NCBI GenBank assembly: GCA_045863335.1
Contig: BTVY01000071.1
Span: 1 to 22,864 of the forward strand
Direction: 5' to 3'
Length of the DNA: 22,864 bases
From: Candidatus Hydrogenedentota bacterium
GTDB taxonomy: Bacteria; Hydrogenedentota; Hydrogenedentia; Hydrogenedentales; SLHB01
This document shows, piece by piece, positions 155 through 21,559 of this stretch (positions within the stretch are counted from its first letter, which is position 1; each line of letters opens with the position of its first letter). The notes below the pieces were generated by a model, which saw only the letters and a list, made by a program, of their open reading frames with translations, was not told the origin of the DNA and did no database searches. A program made the translations under genes and the position numbers.

Positions 155-766
155 ATGGCTGACAAAGTAAAAGCGACGAATATCACGTGGCATCAGGCGG
201 ATATCACGAAGGAAGACCGCGAAAAGCAGAACGGCCACAAGGCGGTCGTGATTTGGTTCACGGGGCTCTCCGGTTCGGGCAAGTCCACGCTGGCCCATGC
301 GGTGGAAAACGCGCTGCACGAGGCGGGCTGCCGCACCTTTGTGCTCGACGGGGATAACATCCGCCACGGTTTGAACAAGGATCTGGGATTCTCGCCGGAA
401 GACCGCGAGGAGAACATCCGCCGTATCGGCGAGGTGGCCAGCCTGTTTACGCAAGCAGGCGTGATCGCCATGACCGCGTTCATTTCCCCCTATCGCGCCG
501 ACCGCGACAAGGCCCGCGCCATTGCGGGGGAGGGAAATTTCGTCGAGGTGTATGTGAAATGCGCGCTGGACGTTTGCGAAGAACGCGACCCGAAGGGGCT
601 GTACAAGAAGGCGCGCGCCGGCGAGATCAAGGAATTCACGGGAATCTCGGCGCCCTACGAAGAACCCGACCATGCTGAACTTGTAGTGGATACAGGTGCA
701 CAGACGCTCCAGGAATCCGCCGAATCCGTCCTCGCGGCACTACGGGAACGGGGTATTATCGAATAG
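155..766 (+). CDS. cysC: Adenylyl-sulfate (APS) kinase
   Basis: [13 protein letters not shown]-loop, [50 protein letters not shown] signatures. Confidence 0.97.
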
Positions 767-816
767 GTTCATCCAGTCGCGGATTTTACTTGAGGAGATC
801 TCCGGTATTTGCGGAT

Positions 817-848
817 TTTGAACCCATCCCCTTGGGGGTGGGTTCAAA
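817..848. terminator. Long hairpin downstream of cysC (probable terminator)
   Basis: TTTGAACCCATCCC-cttg-GGGGTGGGTTCAAA: 14-bp stem with one G-U pair, 50 nt after the cysC stop, followed by only a short T run. Confidence 0.5.
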
Positions 849-872
849 TTTGCACCGCTCAGCCACAATATA

Positions 873-901
873 TTGCGTGCAGCATGGCGTTGTGCTACAA
901 T
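873..901 (+). promoter_or_regulatory. sigma70-type promoter for the 927 gene / ftsA
   Basis: TTGCGT (873-878), 17-bp spacer ending TGc, TACAAT (896-901). Confidence 0.6.
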
Positions 902-926
902 CGACCCCTAAACAGGGGCAAGCACT

Positions 927-3260
927 ATGCGATTCGGCAAGCGTAGTAAGAATCCACTCTCGTGGGGTTGGCGTGGAGCGAGCGTCGTCGAAGCACCGTT
1001 ACCTGAAGAGACCGATGTTTCCTCCAGAGAGTCAACCGAAGTCCAGCCGATCCAGAAACTTGCGATACACAGCCCAGAAGTCCCCACAACCATGGCCCGG
1101 TCCGGAACGGGAGACCACGTCGTGACCAGTGATCCCACGCAACGCCTACTCACTTCTCTGGGACGTTTCCAACGCCACTTCATGAAGGCTCGGGAGGGAG
1201 CACCCCAGGCCCAGTGGTCCGACGAGTGTATGAACCACTTGATTCACGGCGTGGAAATCGCGTTGGAACAGGGCTGGACCGATCTCGTCGAATCGCTCAC
1301 CGAAACGGGCAGGATTCTACAGTCTTACGAGGATGCGGGGCGTGCCAACGAGTGCGTGCCCTTTCTGGCGGAAAGCTACGAGATCATGTGCCTGATGGTC
1401 GGGGACCTTATCGTGGACAAGGTTCGGCCGGGGGTGCTTCGAAAATGGCGAGACTGCTATCAAAACGCCCTGGAAGACCTGTCCGTGGCGGGTTTGCAGC
1501 TAGTTCAGGACGACGATTCAAGCCGATTCCACAGTCATGGTACCGCGGATGCGCAGGCACCGGCGGCAGGAACGCCCGAGACATACGCCGACGAAGATTT
1601 TGATTCGCCGGACCTGGCGTCTGACTTAGCACCGTCGAGTTTCGGGAACTTGGAGGAGTTGCCCCCGTTGACTCCCCTCGATTCGGGCTTGACCCCTGAA
1701 ACGCCGGAGATGCCCTTCTCGTCAGACGACGCCGAGGAAATGGAGTCTCCGTTTGGCGAGCTTGTGATGGACGAAGAGCCCTTCGACGCAACCGATTTGG
1801 CGCCGCCCGAATTTGACGTCCCCCTGGAACCCGGTGCGGATGCGACGGAGGAGTTCTACGCATCGCGAGATGCGGAACTGGATGCCACGGTCTCCGAGGC
1901 ACCCAATTCCGATGCCGGGCACGGACTCGGCGCAGGCGTCGCCGAAACGCTGGACATGTTGTGCGACGGCTTGGCGCGTATCGAGGGCGACCCAAATGGC
2001 GCGCGCGGGACCGTGTTTCTCGCGATCGAGGACGGGCTTGCTTCCCTGCGTGAGTGGGCCGGGCAACAAGGTTGGAGTGGTTCTCTGGCGGCATGCGAGG
2101 CCATGTCCCGCTTGTGCCAGGCTGGGGCGAACCAGGCTGCGCCCCTTGGCGACCGGTTCTTCGAGACCGCTTACGCCTTTGGCGGCGTATACGGCGAAGT
2201 CCAGGACCAAATCGACGACGAAAGCCTTCGCAGTTGGATTGTCGAATGCGATACGTTGATTGGCGAATTGTCGGGCGAGCCCTCGGAAGCAGAGTCGCAG
2301 ACCGAACTGCCGGCCGATTCCAGTGAGGAGATCCCGTTCGAGATTCCCGCGTCGACGGAAGCCACCGAAGACGTGAACCTCGAGATGGAGGTTCCATCGT
2401 TGGAGAACGACGTGCAGGCAGAATCACCGCCTCCTCTGCCGCCGGAACTTCCGGTGGAATCGGATTCCGAGGCGGTCACAGCGGAGAACACGCCGAGCAC
2501 GGCCGCTGCGTCGGGTTCGGACGAGCAGTTTGTCGAAATATCGTCCGCCGTGCCGCCCCCCACCGCGAAGTCGCCGGAAGACGATCCTGCCGCTCATTTT
2601 CTGGAAACCGCGAGGCAGGCCATCGGTTCCGGCGCGACGGCCGACGCCAAGCTGTTCGCCATGCAGGCGGCCGCCAGTATCGCGCAGGCGCAGGCCAAAG
2701 AAGCGGAGTCCCGGGTTCGCCAGGCGGAGATCAGGCTGCAAGAAACGGTCAAGTCCATCGAGAGCGCGCGGGAACAGGTGAAGATTGCCGAAGCCCAAGT
2801 GGAGCAGGCGGAGACGCGCGTCGAAGAAGGGAAAGAACAGCTTGCCGATCGCGGTCGCCATACGCACGGTGTGTTGGGGAGTCTCGAAGGGATTCGATCC
2901 CGGATCGCGGACCTCGACCGCCGGATTCAGGAACTGCAGGCGCAGCGCGACGAAGCCACGCGCCAGCAGTCAGCCGCGGAAGACGCCCTCAATGAAGCGC
3001 GCCAGCAAGAGAGCGATGTGAAATCCCAGCTTGACGAGTTGAAGAATGCCGAGCAGATGGCGCGAGTCCAGCTGGAAGACTCCCGAGGGCAGGTAAAGCT
3101 CTTGCAGCGGAAACAAGGCGAAATCGAGGCGCTCATGGAGCGGGCCCGCGACAGCTTGACCAAATTCCGCGAATCCATGGCGGACATTGACCGGACGATC
3201 GAATTGATTCGGAATGCGGAAACGAGTGCGGCGCTGGAGAACGACGACCTGCTCTTCTAG
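927..3260 (+). CDS. Hypothetical 777-aa acidic protein: two Hpt-like helical domains, D/E/P-rich linkers, C-terminal coiled coil
   Basis: Long ORF with an upstream promoter. Helical segments at aa ~70-195 and ~338-450 share an A-x3-GW motif. Low-complexity acidic linkers, heptad-like A/E/Q/R-rich region aa ~557-770, ends NDDLLF. Start could be the later Met56. Confidence 0.85.
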   Translation: MRFGKRSKNPLSWGWRGASVVEAPLPEETDVSSRESTEVQPIQKLAIHSPEVPTTMARSGTGDHVVTSDPTQRLLTSLGRFQRHFMKAREGAPQAQWSDECMNHLIHGVEIALEQGWTDLVESLTETGRILQSYEDAGRANECVPFLAESYEIMCLMVGDLIVDKVRPGVLRKWRDCYQNALEDLSVAGLQLVQDDDSSRFHSHGTADAQAPAAGTPETYADEDFDSPDLASDLAPSSFGNLEELPPLTPLDSGLTPETPEMPFSSDDAEEMESPFGELVMDEEPFDATDLAPPEFDVPLEPGADATEEFYASRDAELDATVSEAPNSDAGHGLGAGVAETLDMLCDGLARIEGDPNGARGTVFLAIEDGLASLREWAGQQGWSGSLAACEAMSRLCQAGANQAAPLGDRFFETAYAFGGVYGEVQDQIDDESLRSWIVECDTLIGELSGEPSEAESQTELPADSSEEIPFEIPASTEATEDVNLEMEVPSLENDVQAESPPPLPPELPVESDSEAVTAENTPSTAAASGSDEQFVEISSAVPPPTAKSPEDDPAAHFLETARQAIGSGATADAKLFAMQAAASIAQAQAKEAESRVRQAEIRLQETVKSIESAREQVKIAEAQVEQAETRVEEGKEQLADRGRHTHGVLGSLEGIRSRIADLDRRIQELQAQRDEATRQQSAAEDALNEARQQESDVKSQLDELKNAEQMARVQLEDSRGQVKLLQRKQGEIEALMERARDSLTKFRESMADIDRTIELIRNAETSAALENDDLLF

Positions 3261-3359
3261 CTCTCCAGTGATGGCGCGATATCCGCGCAGGACTATTGGC
3301 AGTTCGACTTCAGCACCCGCTGAAATCAGGCGACACGCCACCAACCACAGGGACCCAGT

Positions 3360-4643
3360 GTGCGGAATCGAGGGGAAATCGTAGGGGTAGTCGACTTCGG
3401 GTCCCGCGCCATTCGCGTTCTCATTGCCCGGCGCGAGCCGGACGGCACTGTCCAGATCATCGGCCACGGCACGGCCCCCGGCCACGGCTGCGTATCTCAG
3501 GGCGTCATTCAGGATCGGAATGCCGCTCAGGTAGCGCTGAAACGCGCCCTTGCCGATGCAGAACGGGAGGCGCGCGTGCGTGTGAAGTCCCTGTTCTGCG
3601 GTGTCAATGGCAAGAACGTGGACACCTTCATTCGGGAAGGCAATGTGAAGGTTGAGCGCGAGGTCGTTGAGTTGACGCATATTGCCGAAGCGCGGGACAT
3701 TGCCTCGCGGGACATCCTGGCGGCAGGGAAACGCATCACCTCGTCCATCAGCGCGCAGGAATGGTATGTGGACGACATGCGCGTTATCGATCCCGTGGGA
3801 ATACGGGGCCAGGTGCTGAAGACGCGGGTCCACTTCGCGCGGCTGCCCGGCGTTATCGAAGACAACCTCGTCGCATGTATCGAGTCGCAGAGCCGCGAAC
3901 TCGAAGACATGATCTTCATTCCCGTTGCGTCGGCGCTGGGTTGCCTTACGCCGGAGGATATGGAGCTGGGTGTGGCGGTGCTCGACCTGGGCCGAAGCGT
4001 TTGCGGGTTGGCCGTCTATCGCGATTTTCGCATTCTCGGGACCAACTGTTTCGAGTGGGGCGGGTATCACATTACGCGCGACGTGGCGGCTGGACTCCAG
4101 GTCAGTTTCGAGGAAGCCGACGAGTTGATCCTGGAATATGGGATTTCGGAGGCCTGTATCAACGAGGAATTTGCCGAATCCATGGCCCTCGCCATGCAGG
4201 TGAACGAAGAGCGCGGGGCGCGCGTCAAGCTCAAGACGGCAGTCCCCGGAGCGCCGCCGGTTGTCGATCGCGGCGATCTGGAAATGATTATCTTCGAACG
4301 GGCCAAGGAGCTGCTCATCAAAGTGCGCCAATACCTCCACGCGCGCGGATTGAGCAAACACCTCGTCCGCGGCGTCGTGCTCACGGGGGGCGCAAGCCGG
4401 ATCAAGAATTACACCGCATTGGCGGAGGCGGTCTTTCAAGTGCCTTGCCGAGTCGGACTGCCGAACTCGGTTGAGATCCGGCCCGCGGCCGTGCAGACGC
4501 CCGAGTTTTCCGCGGCCATCGGCATCGTTCGCCACGCGTTGGACTATCGTGATGCCGCTCGTAACGGACGTATCGAGCCGCGCGGTCCAGTCGTGTCGGT
4601 ATCCCGGCGTTTGATGCGGTTCTTCAAGCGTTACTTCCTGTAA
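3360..4643 (+). CDS. ftsA: Cell division protein FtsA (divergent, not in a dcw cluster)
   Basis: Actin-like motifs VVDFGS, VLDLG, GGYHITRDVA, VLTGGAS; FtsA-type SAQEWYVDD...DPVGIRG segment; RVGLP; C-terminal amphipathic helix SRRLMRFFKRYFL. GTG start. Confidence 0.9.
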   Translation: MRNRGEIVGVVDFGSRAIRVLIARREPDGTVQIIGHGTAPGHGCVSQGVIQDRNAAQVALKRALADAEREARVRVKSLFCGVNGKNVDTFIREGNVKVEREVVELTHIAEARDIASRDILAAGKRITSSISAQEWYVDDMRVIDPVGIRGQVLKTRVHFARLPGVIEDNLVACIESQSRELEDMIFIPVASALGCLTPEDMELGVAVLDLGRSVCGLAVYRDFRILGTNCFEWGGYHITRDVAAGLQVSFEEADELILEYGISEACINEEFAESMALAMQVNEERGARVKLKTAVPGAPPVVDRGDLEMIIFERAKELLIKVRQYLHARGLSKHLVRGVVLTGGASRIKNYTALAEAVFQVPCRVGLPNSVEIRPAAVQTPEFSAAIGIVRHALDYRDAARNGRIEPRGPVVSVSRRLMRFFKRYFL

Positions 4644-4703
4644 AACCCCGGTTTATCGGTCGTCGATTACGTCTGCGTTCAGTCGAAATCCGGGCGGGCC
4701 ATC

Positions 4704-4712
4704 TGATACTAT
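4704..4712 (+). promoter_or_regulatory. Extended -10 promoter candidate for glgP
   Basis: TGaTACTAT in the ftsA-glgP intergenic region. Confidence 0.45.
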
Positions 4713-4856
4713 GCCTGACTATTGGGGATTCCAGGGGTATGCAGTCAGTCCACGGCGATCCCTGGAAACATGTGACGAATTGAATCACCAAACGGCCAGA
4801 CGGTCTGGCCCCGGTGCGACTTGAACGGGCGCAAGACGCACTGCAAGGAATGTACG

Positions 4857-7415
4857 ATGCCGAAAGTAAGTACCTATACCGTAGTTCCCAAGATCCCGGC
4901 TCGCCTCGAACGGCTCCGCGACATCGCCAACAACGTCTGGTGGTGCTGGGATCACGAAGCCATCGAGTTGTTCTTTCGAATGGATCGGGAATTGTGGGAC
5001 CGGACGGTTCAGAACCCGGTATGGACCCTCGGCGAGGTAACGCAGGCGCGTCTCGAAGAACTCGAGCACGACGAAGGGTACCTGGCGCAACTCGATCGTG
5101 TGGCGGCCCGGTTGGACGAATACCTTGCATCCAGCCCGTGGCGGGAGCGGTATCCCGACGCGCCGGAGGAGTTTAGCGTTGCATACCTTTCCGCCGAGTT
5201 CGGCTTGCATGAGTCCATCTCGATTTACTCGGGCGGTTTAGGTCTGCTCTCGGGCGATCATCTGAAGAGTGCCAGCGACCTCGGCATTCCCTTGGTGGGC
5301 GTTGGAATGCTCTACCGGGAAGGCTACCATCGCCAGTATCTCAATGCGGATGGCTGGCAACAAGAGCGCTATCCCCACAACGATGTATACAAGATGCCGG
5401 TCACGCTCGTGCGCGATAAAGAGGGGAGCCCGCTGCTGGTCGAGGTGGAGTTTCCGGAGCGTTTGGTGAAAGCGCGCGTATGGCAATGCAATGTTGGCCG
5501 GGTTCCTCTTTACCTGCTGGATACCGATTTTGACGGGAACGACCCTGACGATCGGGAGATCACGGCGCGCCTGTACGGCGGCGACCGCGATATGCGTATT
5601 CGCCAGGAGATTCTTCTGGGCATCGGCGCCGTAAAGATGCTGCACGCGATCAACGTGTATCCCACGGTGTATCACATGAACGAAGGGCACTCGGCGTTCA
5701 TGACACTGCAGCGGATCAAAGAGTTGATGCTGCAGGACGGGCTTACTTACGAGCAAGCCGTCGATGCGGTTAAGGCAGCCAGTGTGTTCACGACTCACAC
5801 TCCCGTATCGGCCGGCAACGACATGTTTTCCCCGGAGATGATTGAGCACTATTTCCACCGGTATTGTGACGAGATCGGGATCGAGATGAATCAACTCCTG
5901 GCGCTCGGCCGCCAGGATCCTAACGACGCCCGCGAGCCGTTCTGCATGACCGTGTTGGCCTTGAAGGTGTCCGCCGCCGCGAATGGCGTCAGCAAACTGC
6001 ACGGCGAAACGGCGCGAAGCATGTGGTCGCGCACGTGGCACGAGATCCCCGATGACGAAGTGCCGATTACTTCAATCACGAATGGAGTGCATACCCGGTT
6101 TTGGGTGTCCCGCGACATGGCGGGACTGTATGATCGCTATTTGGGGCCCGGCTGGGTGAGCAATCCGGCGGACAACGCGATCTGGTCTCGGATTGACGAC
6201 GTTCCGGACGCGGAACTGTGGCGAACGCACGAGCGCCGCCGTGAACGCCTGGTTACGTTTGCCCGGCGCCGTCTCGCCGCGCAATTGAGTAAGCGCGGCG
6301 CCTCAAACGCAGAGATTGCGGCAGCGTCGGAAGTGCTGGATCCCGAGGCGCTCATCATTGGTTTTGCGCGGCGCTTCGCCACGTACAAACGGGCGAACTT
6401 ATTCTTGACCGAGCCGGAGCGTCTGTTGCGTCTTTTGAAAAATGACGGCCGCCCGATTCAAATGATCGTCGCGGGCAAGGCGCATCCCCAGGACAATCAG
6501 GGCAAGGAACTTATCCGCAATATTATCCACTTCGTGCGGCGATTTGATTGCCGAAATCAGATCGTCTTTCTGGAGGACTACGACATCAACGTCGCCCGGT
6601 ACATGGTGCAAGGCGTGGACTGTTGGTTAAACACACCTCGGCGTCCGATGGAGGCGAGCGGAACCAGCGGAATGAAGGCGGCAGTCAACGGTGTGCTGAA
6701 CATCAGTATTTCCGACGGCTGGTGGTGTGAAGCAGAAGAACTTGGCGAGAACGGTTGGACCATCGGTCATGGTGAATCCTACGCGAATCCCGACGAACAG
6801 GATATGGTGGAGAGCCAGATGCTCTATGAGCTTCTGGAGCGGGAAGTCGTACCGATTTTCTACGATCGCAGCCGGGACGGTTTGCCGCGCGAATGGATCC
6901 GGCGGATGAAGTCCGCGATTCGCACGATTTCCCCGGTATTCAGCACCCATCGGATGGTGCAAGAGTATGCCGAGCGCTTTTACCTGCCATGCACGGTTCG
7001 GCGCAACAGCTTGAAGGACAACAAGCGGGCACGTTCCATCGCCTTGACCAAGTGGAAGATGAAGGTGCATTCCTCCTGGTCGAAAGTGCATTTCCTCGAA
7101 GTCGAGTCCGGTCCCACGGAAGGCCTGCTCTACAGCACGTCGCTCCCGGTGAAGGCGAGTCTCCAGCTCGACAAATTGAAGGATACGGACGTTACGGTCG
7201 AGATTTACTATGGCGATGTCGATCCCTACGGCCGGATCACGAACGGCCGCGCCACGGAGATGAAGTGCACGGGGAAATTGGAAGGCGGGATCTTCCAGTT
7301 TGAAGGCGAGATCTATTGCGACAAGACCGGTCAGCAGGGATTCACCGTCCGCGCCGTGCCGACACATCCGGATCTCCATGACAAACACGAGACGGCACTA
7401 ATCGTTTGGGCGTAG
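4857..7415 (+). CDS. glgP: Alpha-glucan (glycogen/starch) phosphorylase
   Basis: [42 protein letters not shown] and the PLP-binding [10 protein letters not shown] motif. ATG 4857 with AAGGA upstream is preferred to TTG 4821. Confidence 0.96.
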
Positions 7416-9128: not shown

Positions 9129-9875
9129 ATGCGCCTCCAGCAGTTTATAGCCTCCTGCGGTGTCGCATCCCGACGTGCGGCCGAAACACTCATCTGCGAG
9201 GGCCGCGTGACGGTCAATGGCGCGACCGCCCAAATTGGCGCAACGATCGATCCCGGTGTCGATACCGTTCACGTGGACGGACGGTTGCTCACGTTCGAGC
9301 AAAAAGTCTACCTGCTTCTCAACAAACCTCGCGGTGTCGTTACGACCGTGAAAGACACCCATGGACGAGGCACGGTGCTCGATTGTTTCGATGATCTGGA
9401 CGCGCGCGTGTTTCCCGTTGGGCGTCTTGATTTGGACGTGGACGGCGCGCTGTTGCTGACCAACGACGGTGATCTCGCGCATGCCTTGACCCATCCCCGC
9501 TTTGAGGTGAAGAAGACGTATCACGCATGGGTCAGGGGGGAGGTGTCTCTCGAAACGGCGGCCCGCCTTGCACGGGGCGTGCAGTTGGACGACGGAATGA
9601 CGGCACCCGCCCGCGTGAAGATACTGAGTCGCGCTCGCGGCCGTACCCGGATTGAACTCGTAATCCACGAAGGGCGGAACAGAGAAGTGAAGCGCATGTG
9701 CAAGGCCGTGGGCCACCCGGTAAGAGAATTGACGCGCGTCGCCTTCGCGGGTCTTTCGGTGCAAGGAATTTCGCCCGGCACTTGGCGGCATCTGACGAGA
9801 GAAGAAGTCGAAGATTTGCGCGCCATGGTCCAGCCACGGGACCCTTCGACATCCCCACGGAAGCATCGCAAATGA
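9129..9875 (+). CDS. rluB: rRNA pseudouridine synthase, RsuA/RluB family
   Basis: S4 domain (MRLQQFIASCGVASRRAAE), LNKPRG, catalytic VGRLD, EGRNREVKRM; follows scpB. Confidence 0.9.
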   Translation: MRLQQFIASCGVASRRAAETLICEGRVTVNGATAQIGATIDPGVDTVHVDGRLLTFEQKVYLLLNKPRGVVTTVKDTHGRGTVLDCFDDLDARVFPVGRLDLDVDGALLLTNDGDLAHALTHPRFEVKKTYHAWVRGEVSLETAARLARGVQLDDGMTAPARVKILSRARGRTRIELVIHEGRNREVKRMCKAVGHPVRELTRVAFAGLSVQGISPGTWRHLTREEVEDLRAMVQPRDPSTSPRKHRK

Positions 9876-10822
9876 CGGACGCCGGCACGCCATCGACACC
9901 GCGTCCGGGGCCGGAACATACTCGTCAGGCTTTGTGGCAAAGGAGACTGCGGCTTGAGGAGAGATTTCGACGCGAGCGTCAAGTGGGAGAGGGGGACATC
10001 GGGGACAGGCTGTCCCGATCCCGCGTACCCGAATGGGGGTTACGGTCGATCGGACTTTGGAAGCGTGGAATTCGAAACGCCCAACATCTTCGTTTAGTAC
10101 AGCACACTTTGCGCTTGCCGAAACTGCCAGACTTCCTCATTGGCTATCGCATCCTGTACGTAGCGGACTTTCACTTTAACGATCGGTTTCCGGAGTTTGC
10201 ACCGCTCGTCCGCGACTTGTTGGCTACTGTCGAAAGTGAGATTTGTCTCTTCGGTGGAGACTACCACTTCGCCCACGATGGCGATTTCGCTCATGTGTTT
10301 CGCGATATGGCTGTTGTTCTGGAGGGGGTCAACGCCCGTCACGGAGTACATGCGATCCTGGGAAACCACGATCTCTCCGATTTCGTAGAGCCATTCCAAT
10401 CGCTGGGTATTGACATCCTGGTCAACGAAAACCGGCGGATTGACGCCGATGAAGGATCGTTCTGGGTTGCGGGCGTGGACGATCAGCATCGATTCCACTG
10501 CGAGAGTTTGCCGTTGGCCACGGAAGGAATTCCACCAGGTGACTTCAGGCTGTTGCTTGCCCATTCCCCTGAACTGGCGACGCGCGCGCCGGAATTTGGA
10601 ATCGATCTCTATTTGTGCGGGCACACCCATTGGGGACAGATCCGGTTTCCGGTGTTGGGCGCGTTAACCTATAACTCGCGATGCCCATCCCGTTTCTGTA
10701 TGGGAAGGTGGGAAAGTGAGGGGATGTTGGGTTACACCACCGCCGGTATCGGGACCACGGACCTGCCCATCCGGTATAATTGTCCGCCCGAAGCCAGTTT
10801 GCTGACGCTAGCCCGCCTCTGA
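9872..10822 (+). CDS. Calcineurin-like metallophosphoesterase (YkuE/YaeI-like)
   Basis: DFH, GGDY, GNHD, AHSP, GHTHWGQ motifs. ATG 9872 overlaps the rluB stop (ATGA), preferred to 9698. Confidence 0.9.
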   Translation: MTDAGTPSTPRPGPEHTRQALWQRRLRLEERFRRERQVGEGDIGDRLSRSRVPEWGLRSIGLWKRGIRNAQHLRLVQHTLRLPKLPDFLIGYRILYVADFHFNDRFPEFAPLVRDLLATVESEICLFGGDYHFAHDGDFAHVFRDMAVVLEGVNARHGVHAILGNHDLSDFVEPFQSLGIDILVNENRRIDADEGSFWVAGVDDQHRFHCESLPLATEGIPPGDFRLLLAHSPELATRAPEFGIDLYLCGHTHWGQIRFPVLGALTYNSRCPSRFCMGRWESEGMLGYTTAGIGTTDLPIRYNCPPEASLLTLARL

Positions 10823-17346: not shown

Positions 17347-17568
17347 GTCGTAGAACTCCACTCGGTAGAAATTTGTGGTTGCTGTGCGCTGGCACGCGGC
17401 CGCGCGCCGGCAGCGGGCACTCGCCCCCGGTGGGTATAGTACCCTCCGCGTGGGCCGAAGCCCAAATCGATGGCTGCGGACGATGCACCTTCTTGGCTCT
17501 TGTGGAACATTCCCTGTATTCTTCAGGTCCAGATTCCAATAGTGCCTGAATGTTACTGGGCGGAGAGA

Positions 17569-18141
17569 ATGCCGCGAATCTTTATTATTGCTGGTCCGAA
17601 CGGCGCTGGGAAATCATCTTCCGCGGAGAGGCTGCTTCCGGAAGAAGTCGATTGCCGTGAGTTTGTCAATGCGGACTCGATCGCGGCAGGTTTGTCGCCG
17701 TTCGATCCGGATGGCGCTGCGATTCAAGCCGGAAGGATAATGCTCGAGCGAATTGATGAACTGGCAACCAAGCGCGTCGACTTCGCTTTCGAGACGACGC
17801 TCGCGGCCCGCAGTTTTGTCCCTATGATTCGTAAGTGGAACGCGTCGGGTTATGAGGTCGATTTGATATACTTGTGGTTGGAGAATGTGGACATCGCGCT
17901 CCAACGCGTTGCGCGCAGGGTTCGCCTCGGAGGGCACGATGTTCCCGAGGCGGTCGTGCGGCGACGCTACGTTCGGAGCTTGGACAATTTGTTTCGATTG
18001 TACATGCCGATTGTGGAGCGATGGGTTTTGTACGACAACTCACAATTCGCATCGAGACGCGTTGCCTTTAAGCGGGCCGGTCGCTTGGTGAATGTTGAGG
18101 ATGACGCAACATGGTGCTTGATTCAGAAAAAGCCACTTTGA
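17569..18141 (+). CDS. Zeta-toxin-like P-loop kinase/ATPase
   Basis: IIAGPNGAGKSS, FVNADSIA, FAFETTL, RVARRVRLGGHDVPE, YDNS. ATG 17569 with GGAG upstream. Confidence 0.9.
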   Translation: MPRIFIIAGPNGAGKSSSAERLLPEEVDCREFVNADSIAAGLSPFDPDGAAIQAGRIMLERIDELATKRVDFAFETTLAARSFVPMIRKWNASGYEVDLIYLWLENVDIALQRVARRVRLGGHDVPEAVVRRRYVRSLDNLFRLYMPIVERWVLYDNSQFASRRVAFKRAGRLVNVEDDATWCLIQKKPL

Positions 18142-19796: not shown

Positions 19797-20483
19797 TCAG
19801 TCGCTGTTCGACTCCGCCTGTTCCTGCAACCGCCATTTGACGTTGTGGGGTTCGCGGAGGTCGTCGAACCGCACCGTGGGGCAGTACCCGCCGCTTTTGA
19901 CCGTGGCGCGGTTTGCTGGTTCAGCGAGGAGGATCTCGGTGTTGGGCGGGAACACCATGGACACCGTGTTTTCTGGTCCGAGCGCGGTGTTGTTGTGGAA
20001 GACCCAATCGCCGTTTTCCTCTTTGTAGATACCCCATTGCTGTCCTTCGTGGGCCATCGTTTCCGGATGCAGATTGCGGACCCAGACGGTGTACCTAATC
20101 CAGTCCCGCCGATCGACGGGCGTGCGCAGTTTGGCTTCGTAGCGCCACAGGCGATCCCCGGCTTTCACCGCCTGCCAATCCAGTTCATTGCCGTATTCGT
20201 CATACCACTGCATCTGGTCCCGGCCCAGTTCAAAGCCGTCGTATAGGTGAACCGTCCGGACCGGAACGTCTTGCCAGTTCTTCTGCTCCACGTGGAACGC
20301 GCTGGTTACCGAGGAGTCTTCGGCGAACCAGTAGGTCGCCTCCGCGCGGCCGTCGAAGACCTTGCGGGCGTTTTGCCAGACCCAGAATTCCGCGGCCCCG
20401 ACGGCGGGAATGGCAATAGCCGCCGAGCAAAGATACCCCAGCGTTTTCATGGAAACACGATTTAACAGGCTACGCATCGACAT
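19797..20483 (-). CDS. Hypothetical exported protein, third gene of the ECF operon
   Basis: GGAGG ribosome-binding site; N-terminal basic + hydrophobic signal-like segment; overlaps the upstream gene by 14 nt. Confidence 0.75.
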   Translation of the reverse strand: MSMRSLLNRVSMKTLGYLCSAAIAIPAVGAAEFWVWQNARKVFDGRAEATYWFAEDSSVTSAFHVEQKNWQDVPVRTVHLYDGFELGRDQMQWYDEYGNELDWQAVKAGDRLWRYEAKLRTPVDRRDWIRYTVWVRNLHPETMAHEGQQWGIYKEENGDWVFHNNTALGPENTVSMVFPPNTEILLAEPANRATVKSGGYCPTVRFDDLREPHNVKWRLQEQAESNSD

Positions 20484-20889
20484 GGTCGGTACCTCCCTCG
20501 CCTTCGCTCGCGGTGGGCGACATTGCGTCCAAGCGCGCGGCGATTTGGGACAACTGCAGTTGCACTTGCTTGATCTCTTTTGATGTGGCCATGCGGCTGT
20601 CGACGACCCAATACCAGAGTTTCAACAGGACGCTAGATTCCAGGCCGATCATCAGCAGGAAAAAGCCCAAGAGCATTTCCCGGGTGTCGCCTGCGTGGGC
20701 AATCCACCATGCGCCGAAGTAGAGAAATCCGGTGCAGACCAACAACGACAGCGTCAGCCGGACCATCATCTTTTTGCGCTGGTAGTCGAACTCCTCGACC
20801 ACCTTGCGCCGCGCGTCTTCGTCGGGCGCGTCGTCCAACTCCATGACGCCCCAGATGAAGTCGTGCAACCGCCGTTCTCCGTTTTTCAT
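20470..20889 (-). CDS. Two-TM membrane protein, probable anti-sigma factor
   Basis: ATG 20889 overlaps the sigma stop (ATGA); two hydrophobic helices; LKLWYW...KEIKQVQLQL tail (DUF6768-like from memory). Confidence 0.75.
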   Translation of the reverse strand: MKNGERRLHDFIWGVMELDDAPDEDARRKVVEEFDYQRKKMMVRLTLSLLVCTGFLYFGAWWIAHAGDTREMLLGFFLLMIGLESSVLLKLWYWVVDSRMATSKEIKQVQLQLSQIAARLDAMSPTASEGEGGTDHVDA

Positions 20890-21431
20890 GGCGTCGTTTC
20901 CTCCAGGCGCCGGCGCAAGTGTTGCCGGCAATGGTACAGGCGGGACTTCACCGTGCCCGGGGATATCCCCAGCACGTCCGCAATCTCCGCCACGCTCAAC
21001 TGTTCGTAGTAATAAAGGCTGACCAGCGCGCGCTGTTCCGGCGTCAATACGGTAAGCGCCGTCTCCAATGCGGCGTCTTGTCCATCCGCGCGCGTGCGCG
21101 GCGGCGGCGCGTTGGCTATCTCCTCAAAGGTCCGATCCCGTTTCCTGCGCCGCTGCTGCTTGCGGATCCAGTCGATGGCCTTGCCGTGCAGAATCCGAAA
21201 GGCCCACGCCGGGAACGCCACCGGGTCGTCCAAGTGGCCCAGGTTGCGGACCATGGCCATCCAGGCGTCCTGGGCCACGTCCCGCGCCGCTTCCCCGTCG
21301 CCGGTCAAGGCACATGCCTGCCGCACCAGCCGGGGATGCCAGCGCCGCACCAATTCGTCCAACGCCCCCGCGTCCCCCGCCTGGCTAGCCGCCACGAGCC
21401 ATTCGTCGTACAGCTTGTCCCGCTGGTCCAT
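20886..21431 (-). CDS. ECF RNA polymerase sigma factor
   Basis: GDAGALDELVRRW, ARDVAQDAW, FPAWAFRI, AIDWIRK; region 4 LYYYEQLSVAEIADVLGISPGTVKSRLYHCR. ATG 21431 preferred. Confidence 0.95.
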   Translation of the reverse strand: MDQRDKLYDEWLVAASQAGDAGALDELVRRWHPRLVRQACALTGDGEAARDVAQDAWMAMVRNLGHLDDPVAFPAWAFRILHGKAIDWIRKQQRRRKRDRTFEEIANAPPPRTRADGQDAALETALTVLTPEQRALVSLYYYEQLSVAEIADVLGISPGTVKSRLYHCRQHLRRRLEETTP

Positions 21432-21438
21432 ACATATA

Positions 21439-21466
21439 AAGGTCGCGCGAAGAGGGGGGCGGTTCA
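21439..21466 (-). promoter_or_regulatory. Putative autoregulated ECF promoter
   Basis: TGAACC-N16-GACCTT ending 7 nt before the sigma ATG; GAAC-type -35 typical of ECF promoters; no Shine-Dalgarno. Confidence 0.55.
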
Positions 21467-21559
21467 ATCGGGGGGGCGGTGAGGGGGGGAGATGAGTCCC
21501 TTGGCATTAATAAGCAATGAAATTCATACTGTCATGCCGTGCAAGTAAAGATCCCAGCG

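Follow-up and report, generated by a model that had tools for sequence, protein, structure and literature searches.

In the bacterial divisome, FtsA acts as the main membrane tether and as a signalling hub, and few bacterial gene orders are as well conserved as the link between ftsA and ftsZ within the dcw cluster. In the stretch of DNA analysed here, the 22,864 nucleotides (nt) of contig BTVY01000071.1 from a Candidatus Hydrogenedentota assembly (GCA_045863335.1), ftsA (encoding P0002) instead lies directly 3′ of a gene for a 777-amino acid (aa) acidic protein, P0001, which is predicted to combine Hpt-like helical bundles with a coiled coil. This whole stretch, referred to below as the window, is one contig of an assembly of 6.75 Mb with a completeness of 99.4%. 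As a unit, the two genes are conserved across one order of the phylum, and we propose, with about even confidence, that P0001 is a new lineage-specific accessory or regulatory partner of FtsA in division, a binding partnership suggested by gene context. Judged by titles and abstracts, no literature was found on FtsA or cell division in Hydrogenedentota, and none of relevance on a relocated ftsA or on the dcw cluster together with a coiled-coil partner.

Several described systems share single traits with this locus. A direct regulator of FtsA is known from γ-proteobacteria, where the cytoplasmic part of FtsN is described as docking on FtsA by its extreme N-terminal basic residues, with residues 1-8 sitting in the IA-IC cleft, and as changing the polymer form of FtsA by inducing double filaments (PDB 7Q6I; PMC7613929). 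The most conserved linear motif of P0001 is likewise its extreme basic N-terminus, and a contact between P0001 and FtsA may be envisaged by analogy. In contrast to FtsN, a bitopic protein of the membrane whose SPOR domain is periplasmic, P0001 has no membrane or SPOR match in Pfam or NCBIfam, and its translation, inspected by eye and not by a transmembrane prediction, contains no hydrophobic stretch; beyond basic charge there is presumably no likeness between the two sequences. A second comparison is with the P1 (Hpt) domain of CheA (3kyj, 1i5n, 2lp4), whose five-helix fold is matched over the whole domain by two predicted bundles of P0001, D1 and D2, although these lack the conserved histidine and the kinase domains and share 9-17% identity with it. 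In the polar hub of Pseudomonas, FimL is a pseudo-Hpt scaffold beside a large acidic hub protein. FimL and FimV thus resemble P0001 in using a degenerate Hpt-like bundle as a scaffold together with very acidic low-complexity regions, but FimL has its role in signalling through type IV pili and cAMP rather than beside ftsA, and what links it to P0001 is a match between structure models (see below). Finally, coiled-coil or oligomeric cytoplasmic organisers with ties to division or polarity, such as PopZ, DivIVA, EzrA and ZapB, share with P0001 a partner-binding end, a flexible acidic proline-rich linker and a helical oligomerisation domain, yet P0001 has no Pfam match to families of these types at E ≤ 0.01 and differs from them in size and in its Hpt-like domains.

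The P0001 gene (927-3260, + strand) and ftsA (3360-4643, + strand; 427 aa from a GTG start) are separated by a spacer of 99 nt (3261-3359). A first-pass annotation, made from the letters of the window, had reported this arrangement, and the open reading frames (ORFs), their translations and the profile match of FtsA bear it out; it was also right that ftsA has neither ftsQ upstream nor ftsZ downstream, since profile matches place cysC (APS kinase, 155-766) 5′ of the P0001 gene and an alpha-glucan phosphorylase gene (glgP, 4821-7415) 3′ of ftsA. P0001 homologues occur in 41/41 relatives, and FtsA in 40 of them, the exception being a genome that is 63% complete. In a phylum-wide set of 135 genomes, in which FtsA was counted at E ≤ 1e-30, D1 and FtsA were each found in 128 genomes and both in 123. 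The synteny check that the annotation had suggested finds the pair adjacent and co-oriented in 113 of these 123, with D1 upstream of ftsA on a shared contig and strand at a distance of 1064-2333 nt (median 1666); the remaining ten have the two matches on separate contigs, and for G003 and G010 among them a piece of the upstream gene that encodes its C-terminal part still adjoins ftsA. The two genes lie apart on one contig in none of the 123. Among 32 fetched loci the genes are co-oriented with a gap of 4-213 nt in 28 and a negative gap in four; gap lengths depend on starts chosen by script, and three of the negative values are artefacts of start picking, while the -17 nt of L088 may reflect a genuine overlap. 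The flanks vary: they are cysC and glgP here, whereas G039 has an AbiE pair and a divergent rpsD, and G036 has brxC and hisS. The conserved unit is exactly the P0001 gene plus ftsA, and the pairing survives in 11 sampled families (f1-f13).

The seven genomes of the phylum set without D1 comprise five that belong to the order but are incomplete, at 66-88%, and two genomes, G041 and G042, which belong to other families of the same phylum outside the order and have kept ftsA-ftsZ-pilT-radical-SAM. Read from this distribution, the relocation of ftsA, the arrival of its new neighbour and an accelerated divergence of FtsA (see below) appear to coincide on one branch as one event and not many. The same pattern could be read as history without function, in which an ancestral rearrangement put ftsA behind an unrelated gene and the order was merely inherited: all carriers fall in one order, so that a single event suffices, and gene context is the only evidence from which binding of P0001 to FtsA is deduced. 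We consider this quite improbable, as the arrangement was kept in all 11 sampled families while every other neighbour changed, the gaps are short and the genes co-oriented, and unlinked gene pairs rarely persist at such depth.

The identity of P0002 as FtsA is well supported, with 223.5 bits against TIGR01174 (cut-off 175.85), 75.6 bits against the Pfam FtsA family PF14450 (cut-off 31.8) and a full-length alignment of the protein (residues 7-399) with solved FtsA structures (7q6f, E 1.1e-38). The protein ends in a basic amphipathic tail (..RRLMRFFKRYFL; amphipathicity judged by eye), and a similar tail is present in nearly all of the 32 FtsA homologues listed across the order. FtsA of this order is divergent, as the annotation had stated: TIGR01174 scores range from 160 to 254 bits in 13 in-order proteins and reach 423.7 and 435.0 in G041 and G042; of the 12 in-order FtsAs other than that of the window, 11 exceed the cut-off and the twelfth had its N-terminus cut. 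In pairwise comparison each subdomain of the window FtsA shares 17-34% identity with its counterparts in the two out-of-order proteins, whereas those two share 54-59% with each other. Subdomain 2B carries an insertion of ~15-20 residues, and the SHS2_FTSA (1C) profile gives P0002 23.7 bits, below its cut-off of 25.4, as against 99.7 bits in G042. The phosphate-2 loop (3960-4010, residues ~207-218) reads DLGRSVCG, where the order consensus is DxGRSTTG and the order-wide pattern DxGRS(T/V)(T/C)G; the two out-of-order genomes have [ND][IV]GGGTT[GD], and GGGTT is also found in other actin-fold ATPases. The change from GGG to GRS may alter nucleotide binding or hydrolysis.

The assembly contains one match above the FtsA cut-off, P0002, and three weak actin-fold matches of 24-59 bits. 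Calling this FtsA an 'orphan' was therefore misleading, as no further copy is encoded in a genome that is 99.4% complete. The single ftsZ (387.8 bits) lies on another contig (C3) in the order murC, POTRA-type ftsQ, ftsZ and pilT, without ftsA, from which it follows that ftsA was removed from between ftsQ and ftsZ. FtsZ ends in a canonical-looking tail of the FtsA-binding type (..DLSIPAFMRKRMKRT). Neither SepF (PF04472) nor the C-terminal domain of MinC (PF03775) was found in the genome, while ZapA has one match and SPOR domains have two; the lack of SepF and MinC leaves room for lineage-specific Z-ring factors, and among the known kinds of Z-ring tether FtsA alone was found in this genome, given that SepF was not. 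Taken together, the sole ftsA, the canonical C-terminal peptide of FtsZ and the kept amphipathic tail mean that division must depend on this FtsA, which has to be the one belonging to the divisome and not an extra copy or part of a second cytoskeletal module.

The annotation had proposed a non-canonical module as a candidate, with a PopZ/DivIVA-like polymer tethered to the membrane by this FtsA, which is read here as a spare FtsA acting apart from FtsZ. Its appeal lies in the divergence of FtsA, with the GGG to GRS change in the phosphate-2 loop and a 1C score of 23.7 bits against a cut-off of 25.4, and in the resemblance of P0001 to PopZ logic, namely an interaction domain, an acidic proline-rich linker and an oligomerisation domain. 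These traits notwithstanding, we regard the separate module as highly improbable, because the near-complete genome has only one ftsA, FtsZ keeps the FtsA-binding type of tail, no other known FtsZ tether was found in the absence of SepF, and P0001 has no Pfam match to the PopZ or DivIVA families. What stands of the proposal is a tightly conserved pair with a scaffold-like partner; its separation from the FtsZ/FtsA divisome does not, and membership of P0001 in a PopZ/DivIVA family finds no Pfam match at E ≤ 0.01, while the CheA-P1/Hpt-like bundles had not been foreseen. Among the findings that would speak against it, the annotation had also named a dcw cluster that is simply fragmented, with this gene as its sole canonical ftsA and no predicted interaction, and half of this is the case: the copy is the only one and the dcw region is rearranged. 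Overall its idea is thus partly supported, the observations being right except for the promoter (see below) and the word 'orphan', and the interpretation being half right.

Beside these results, a pilT-family ATPase gene directly follows ftsZ in all three genomes examined (contig C3 of the window's genome, G041 and G042), and in the two out-of-order genomes pilT is followed by a gene for a B12-binding radical-SAM protein. The ftsZ-pilT linkage is conserved in the phylum as far as these three genomes go.

P0001 itself has a calculated isoelectric point of 4.25, with 154 aspartate and glutamate (D+E) residues vs 62 lysines and arginines, and reaches the cut-off of no family in Pfam or NCBIfam. 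A collection of 5.8 billion proteins holds 92 homologues; those with names are recorded as 'hypothetical protein' of Candidatus Hydrogenedentes or Hydrogenedentota, with one record from a 'bacterium' only, and a few JGI records carry the name 'predicted nucleic acid-binding Zn-ribbon protein', so that no homologue name gives a meaningful family. When a hidden Markov model of D1 was run against 1.84 billion cluster representatives, 201 proteins were found at E ≤ 0.001, 196 of them at E ≤ 1e-10. In all 150 listed of the 201, which are 178-941 aa long, D1 begins within the first 93 residues; the family thus has a single architecture and is restricted to one order of Hydrogenedentota.

The annotation had described helical domains, acidic proline-rich linkers, a long coiled coil and terminal peptides in P0001, and this architecture holds, giving the protein the modular build of a scaffold. 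At its start an order-wide alignment defines a basic N-terminal peptide (residues 1-30, 927-1016, + strand) of the form MRFGKRxK..GRR, in which R2 and F3 are each present in 25 of 28 rows, G4 in 23 and a lysine or arginine at position 5 in 27. D1, a predicted five-helix bundle at about residues 68-195 (1128-1511, + strand), is the universal core of the family. It is followed by linker 1 (residues 196-334, 1512-1928, + strand), recognised by its composition of 27% D+E and 12% proline and not alignable between homologues, and by a second helical bundle, D2, at about residues 335-447 (1929-2267, + strand), which was defined like D1 by an AlphaFold2 (AF2) model and structure searches. D2 is recognisable in families f1 and f3 only, and nine other sampled families have linker in its place. 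Linker 2 (residues 448-554, 2268-2588, + strand; 25% D+E, 16% proline) contains a small PFE motif near residue 490, and 90% or more of 27 rows have kept its P490. The helical lead-in and coiled coil that come next, ~210 aa in all (residues 555-763, 2589-3215, + strand), are proline-free and conserved order-wide, and alignments delimit an acidic C-terminal peptide (3216-3257, + strand) ending in ..DDLLF; an [L/M/E]LF ending is found in 26/27 rows of a first alignment set (A1) and in 17/28 rows of the order-wide set (A3). The coiled-coil part has sub-threshold matches only, such as SMC_prok_B (33.8 bits, cut-off 567) and Tropomyosin (22.9 bits, cut-off 38.6), which reflect no more than coiled-coil composition; further sub-threshold Pfam matches of P0001 are HAUS1 and OVT1, and a search of a structure atlas with the coiled-coil part returned no usable match.

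Two ideas on the terminal motif were pursued and set aside. A comparison by eye of the LLF motif and the tail charge of FtsA, made to look for co-variation, gave no clean pattern and is confounded by phylogeny, and a reading of ..DDLLF as a clamp-binding or SSB-tail-like motif matched the motifs known for these functions inexactly, so that no claim is made. As a separate observation, the P0001 homologue of one relative (G004:C1:265971-268362, locus L010) is split inside D1 into two frames of 135 aa and 696 aa, and those of G029 and G030 each contain one in-frame TAG; these disruptions may be assembly errors, pseudogenes or cases of recoding.

The folds of both bundles were approached through AF2 models. 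The D1 model (pLDDT 93.0, pTM 0.86) has five helices, and in a Foldseek search of the PDB the eight best rows are without exception chains of CheA P1 (Hpt), at TMq values of 0.64-0.73 and E-values of 0.02-0.13. A VIA search, which is independent of Foldseek, returned a Z of 16.7 to 3kyj_A (root-mean-square deviation (rmsd) 2.5, 123 aligned) and of 15.1 to 1i5n_A and 2lp4, with CheA P1 filling five of the six top rows and generic four-helix bundles reaching at most 10.5. For D2 (pLDDT 95.8), Foldseek rows of CheA P1 have TMq values of 0.62-0.77, and VIA gives Z 14.7-14.9 to CheA P1 (rmsd 2.6 over 113 residues for Z 14.9), on a par with a designed repeat protein. All Foldseek E-values for D1 and D2 exceed 0.001, and in helical bundles a shared arrangement is enough to produce a Z of about 14; by these models D2 makes a weaker case for CheA-P1 likeness than D1. 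A comparison of the D1 and D2 profiles is not significant (probability 0.3%), and a tandem duplication is not supported. No alignment column has a histidine in more than 7/28 rows in D1 or in more than 3/19 in D2, and P0001 has no match to Pfam Hpt (PF01627) at E ≤ 0.01; the two bundles are therefore to be seen as Hpt-like folds and not as general phosphotransfer sites. The models thus point to CheA-P1/Hpt-like docking modules without phosphotransfer.

From these folds arises the main rival reading, in which P0001 and FtsA would be co-expressed without binding. P0001 would then be a signalling or polar-hub scaffold whose bundles dock a CheY-like receiver, so that it may connect a response regulator with division or polarity, and the operon would serve only to couple its level to the cell cycle. 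D1 and D2 both match CheA P1, which has been solved with CheY-type receivers (3kyj, 2lp4), and very acidic linkers are typical of hub proteins. In the atlas search, D1 falls beside a cluster of FimL second domains and CheA Hpt with a TM of 0.70 by query, a model-to-model match that has a row TM of only 0.56 and is flagged as below the bar for naming a family. A model for such docking is offered by FimL and FimV, described as hub proteins on which the polar localisation of PilG depends (PMC12632253). Against the hub stands that no receiver-domain gene travels with the pair, the flanks being variable, and that the bundles have no conserved histidine; moreover, it fails to explain why ftsA is the sole conserved neighbour, or why FtsA diverged in the same lineage. 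Such a hub seems rather unlikely to us.

We return to the proposal that P0001 is an accessory partner of FtsA. In this scenario, the single ftsA would have left its ftsA-ftsZ-pilT position in the ancestor of the order and become fixed directly 3′ of a new gene, and the two genes would have come to form a lineage-specific division operon with presumed co-transcription. P0001 would be a cytoplasmic, highly acidic scaffold that probably self-associates via its C-terminal coiled coil, with flexible acidic linkers presenting one or two phosphotransfer-dead docking bundles and short conserved terminal peptides. It would bind membrane-anchored FtsA at the Z-ring, most plausibly via the extreme N-terminal basic peptide or D1, and binding would modulate the oligomerisation of FtsA or the recruitment of later divisome proteins. 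By analogy to FtsN, the conserved N-terminus is the obvious candidate for a contact with FtsA. The gene order, the conservation of the pair, the single-copy status of ftsA, the folds and the divergence of FtsA are shown here, and from there the co-transcription of the genes, the self-association of P0001, its binding to FtsA and its role in division are inferred. In a bolder form of this proposal, which we consider unlikely, P0001 would found a new class of direct FtsA regulators that replaced the coupling of ftsA to ftsZ: MRFGKR would dock at the IA-IC cleft in the manner of FtsN, multivalency of the coiled coil would cluster or switch FtsA polymers and thereby control where and when the Z-ring matures, in a lineage for which neither MinC nor SepF was found, and the accelerated divergence of FtsA across the order would be a co-adaptation to this partner.

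The layout of the locus is compatible with an operon in some respects. No terminator-like site was reported by a scan of the + strand from 600 to 5000, and the fold of the spacer RNA (3261-3359) is no better than that of shuffles (z -0.64), in agreement with the annotation, which had seen no terminator between the genes; Rfam has no match in 600-5000 either. The 'one clear promoter' claimed at 873-901 (+ strand, TTGCGT-17 nt-TACAAT) did not hold up as such: it agrees with the consensus at 8/12 positions by manual count, is weak and was missed by a consensus scan, although the consensus may not be valid for this phylum. The only promoter-like site that the scan found in the region lies on the minus strand and is no more than is found in shuffles. 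Of four runs, only one, an RNA-library run (X2), covers the region, and a 2520-nt contig from it spans 1907-4426 and bridges the junction of the P0001 gene and ftsA. As an observation on the upstream side, a near-perfect GC-rich inverted repeat (GAACCCATCCCC..GGGGGTGGGTTC) at 820-845, 54 nt past the stop codon of cysC, has AAATTT after it; it probably serves as the terminator of cysC, though it has no T-run and was not listed by the scan.

Several points weigh against the proposed partnership. The bridging contig does not discriminate an operon: X2 was built from contigs and not reads, DNA carry-over is possible, all 30 bins of the 7.5 kb are covered at a depth of ~5-15 (one cysC bin reaching 35), and the spacers between cysC and the P0001 gene and between ftsA and glgP are covered at a depth similar to that of the P0001/ftsA junction. 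Binding between the two proteins is argued from gene context, and all of the synteny may go back to one ancestral event, in which case the genomes are not independent observations. The LLF motif is absent in 11/28 order-wide rows and D2 in most families, hence these parts cannot be a universal interface. The divergence of FtsA is spread evenly over its subdomains, with no single surface in focus, and Hpt-like bundles usually dock receiver domains and not actin-like proteins. A complex prediction of FtsA with P0001 residues 1-200, 335-450 and 555-777, made without controls, gave a score of 0.00 against a mark of 0.32 and speaks neither for nor against binding.

Elsewhere in the window, the ORFs for a pseudouridine synthase (9129-9875) and a YaeI-like metallophosphoesterase (9698-10822) overlap by 178 nt, and the latter has Pfam and NCBIfam matches only from residues 118-151 onwards; its start may therefore really be located further 3′. 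On the minus strand, 20470-21467 encodes an extracytoplasmic function (ECF) sigma factor of the PF07638 type, followed by a DUF6768 protein that is possibly its anti-sigma partner. An ORF of 223 aa at 17470-18141 (+ strand) encodes a Zeta-toxin/AAA_33-like P-loop kinase without an obvious antitoxin neighbour.

For the biology of this lineage, the arrangement means that the ftsA-ftsZ link is broken throughout an order of an uncultured phylum, and that the sole, fast-evolving FtsA of this order is now coupled to a new scaffold. Should P0001 and FtsA interact, they would represent a new mode of FtsA regulation, in which signalling folds have been reused as cytoskeletal adaptors. P0001 and FtsA are soluble and modular, which should make in vitro work possible without culturing the organism.

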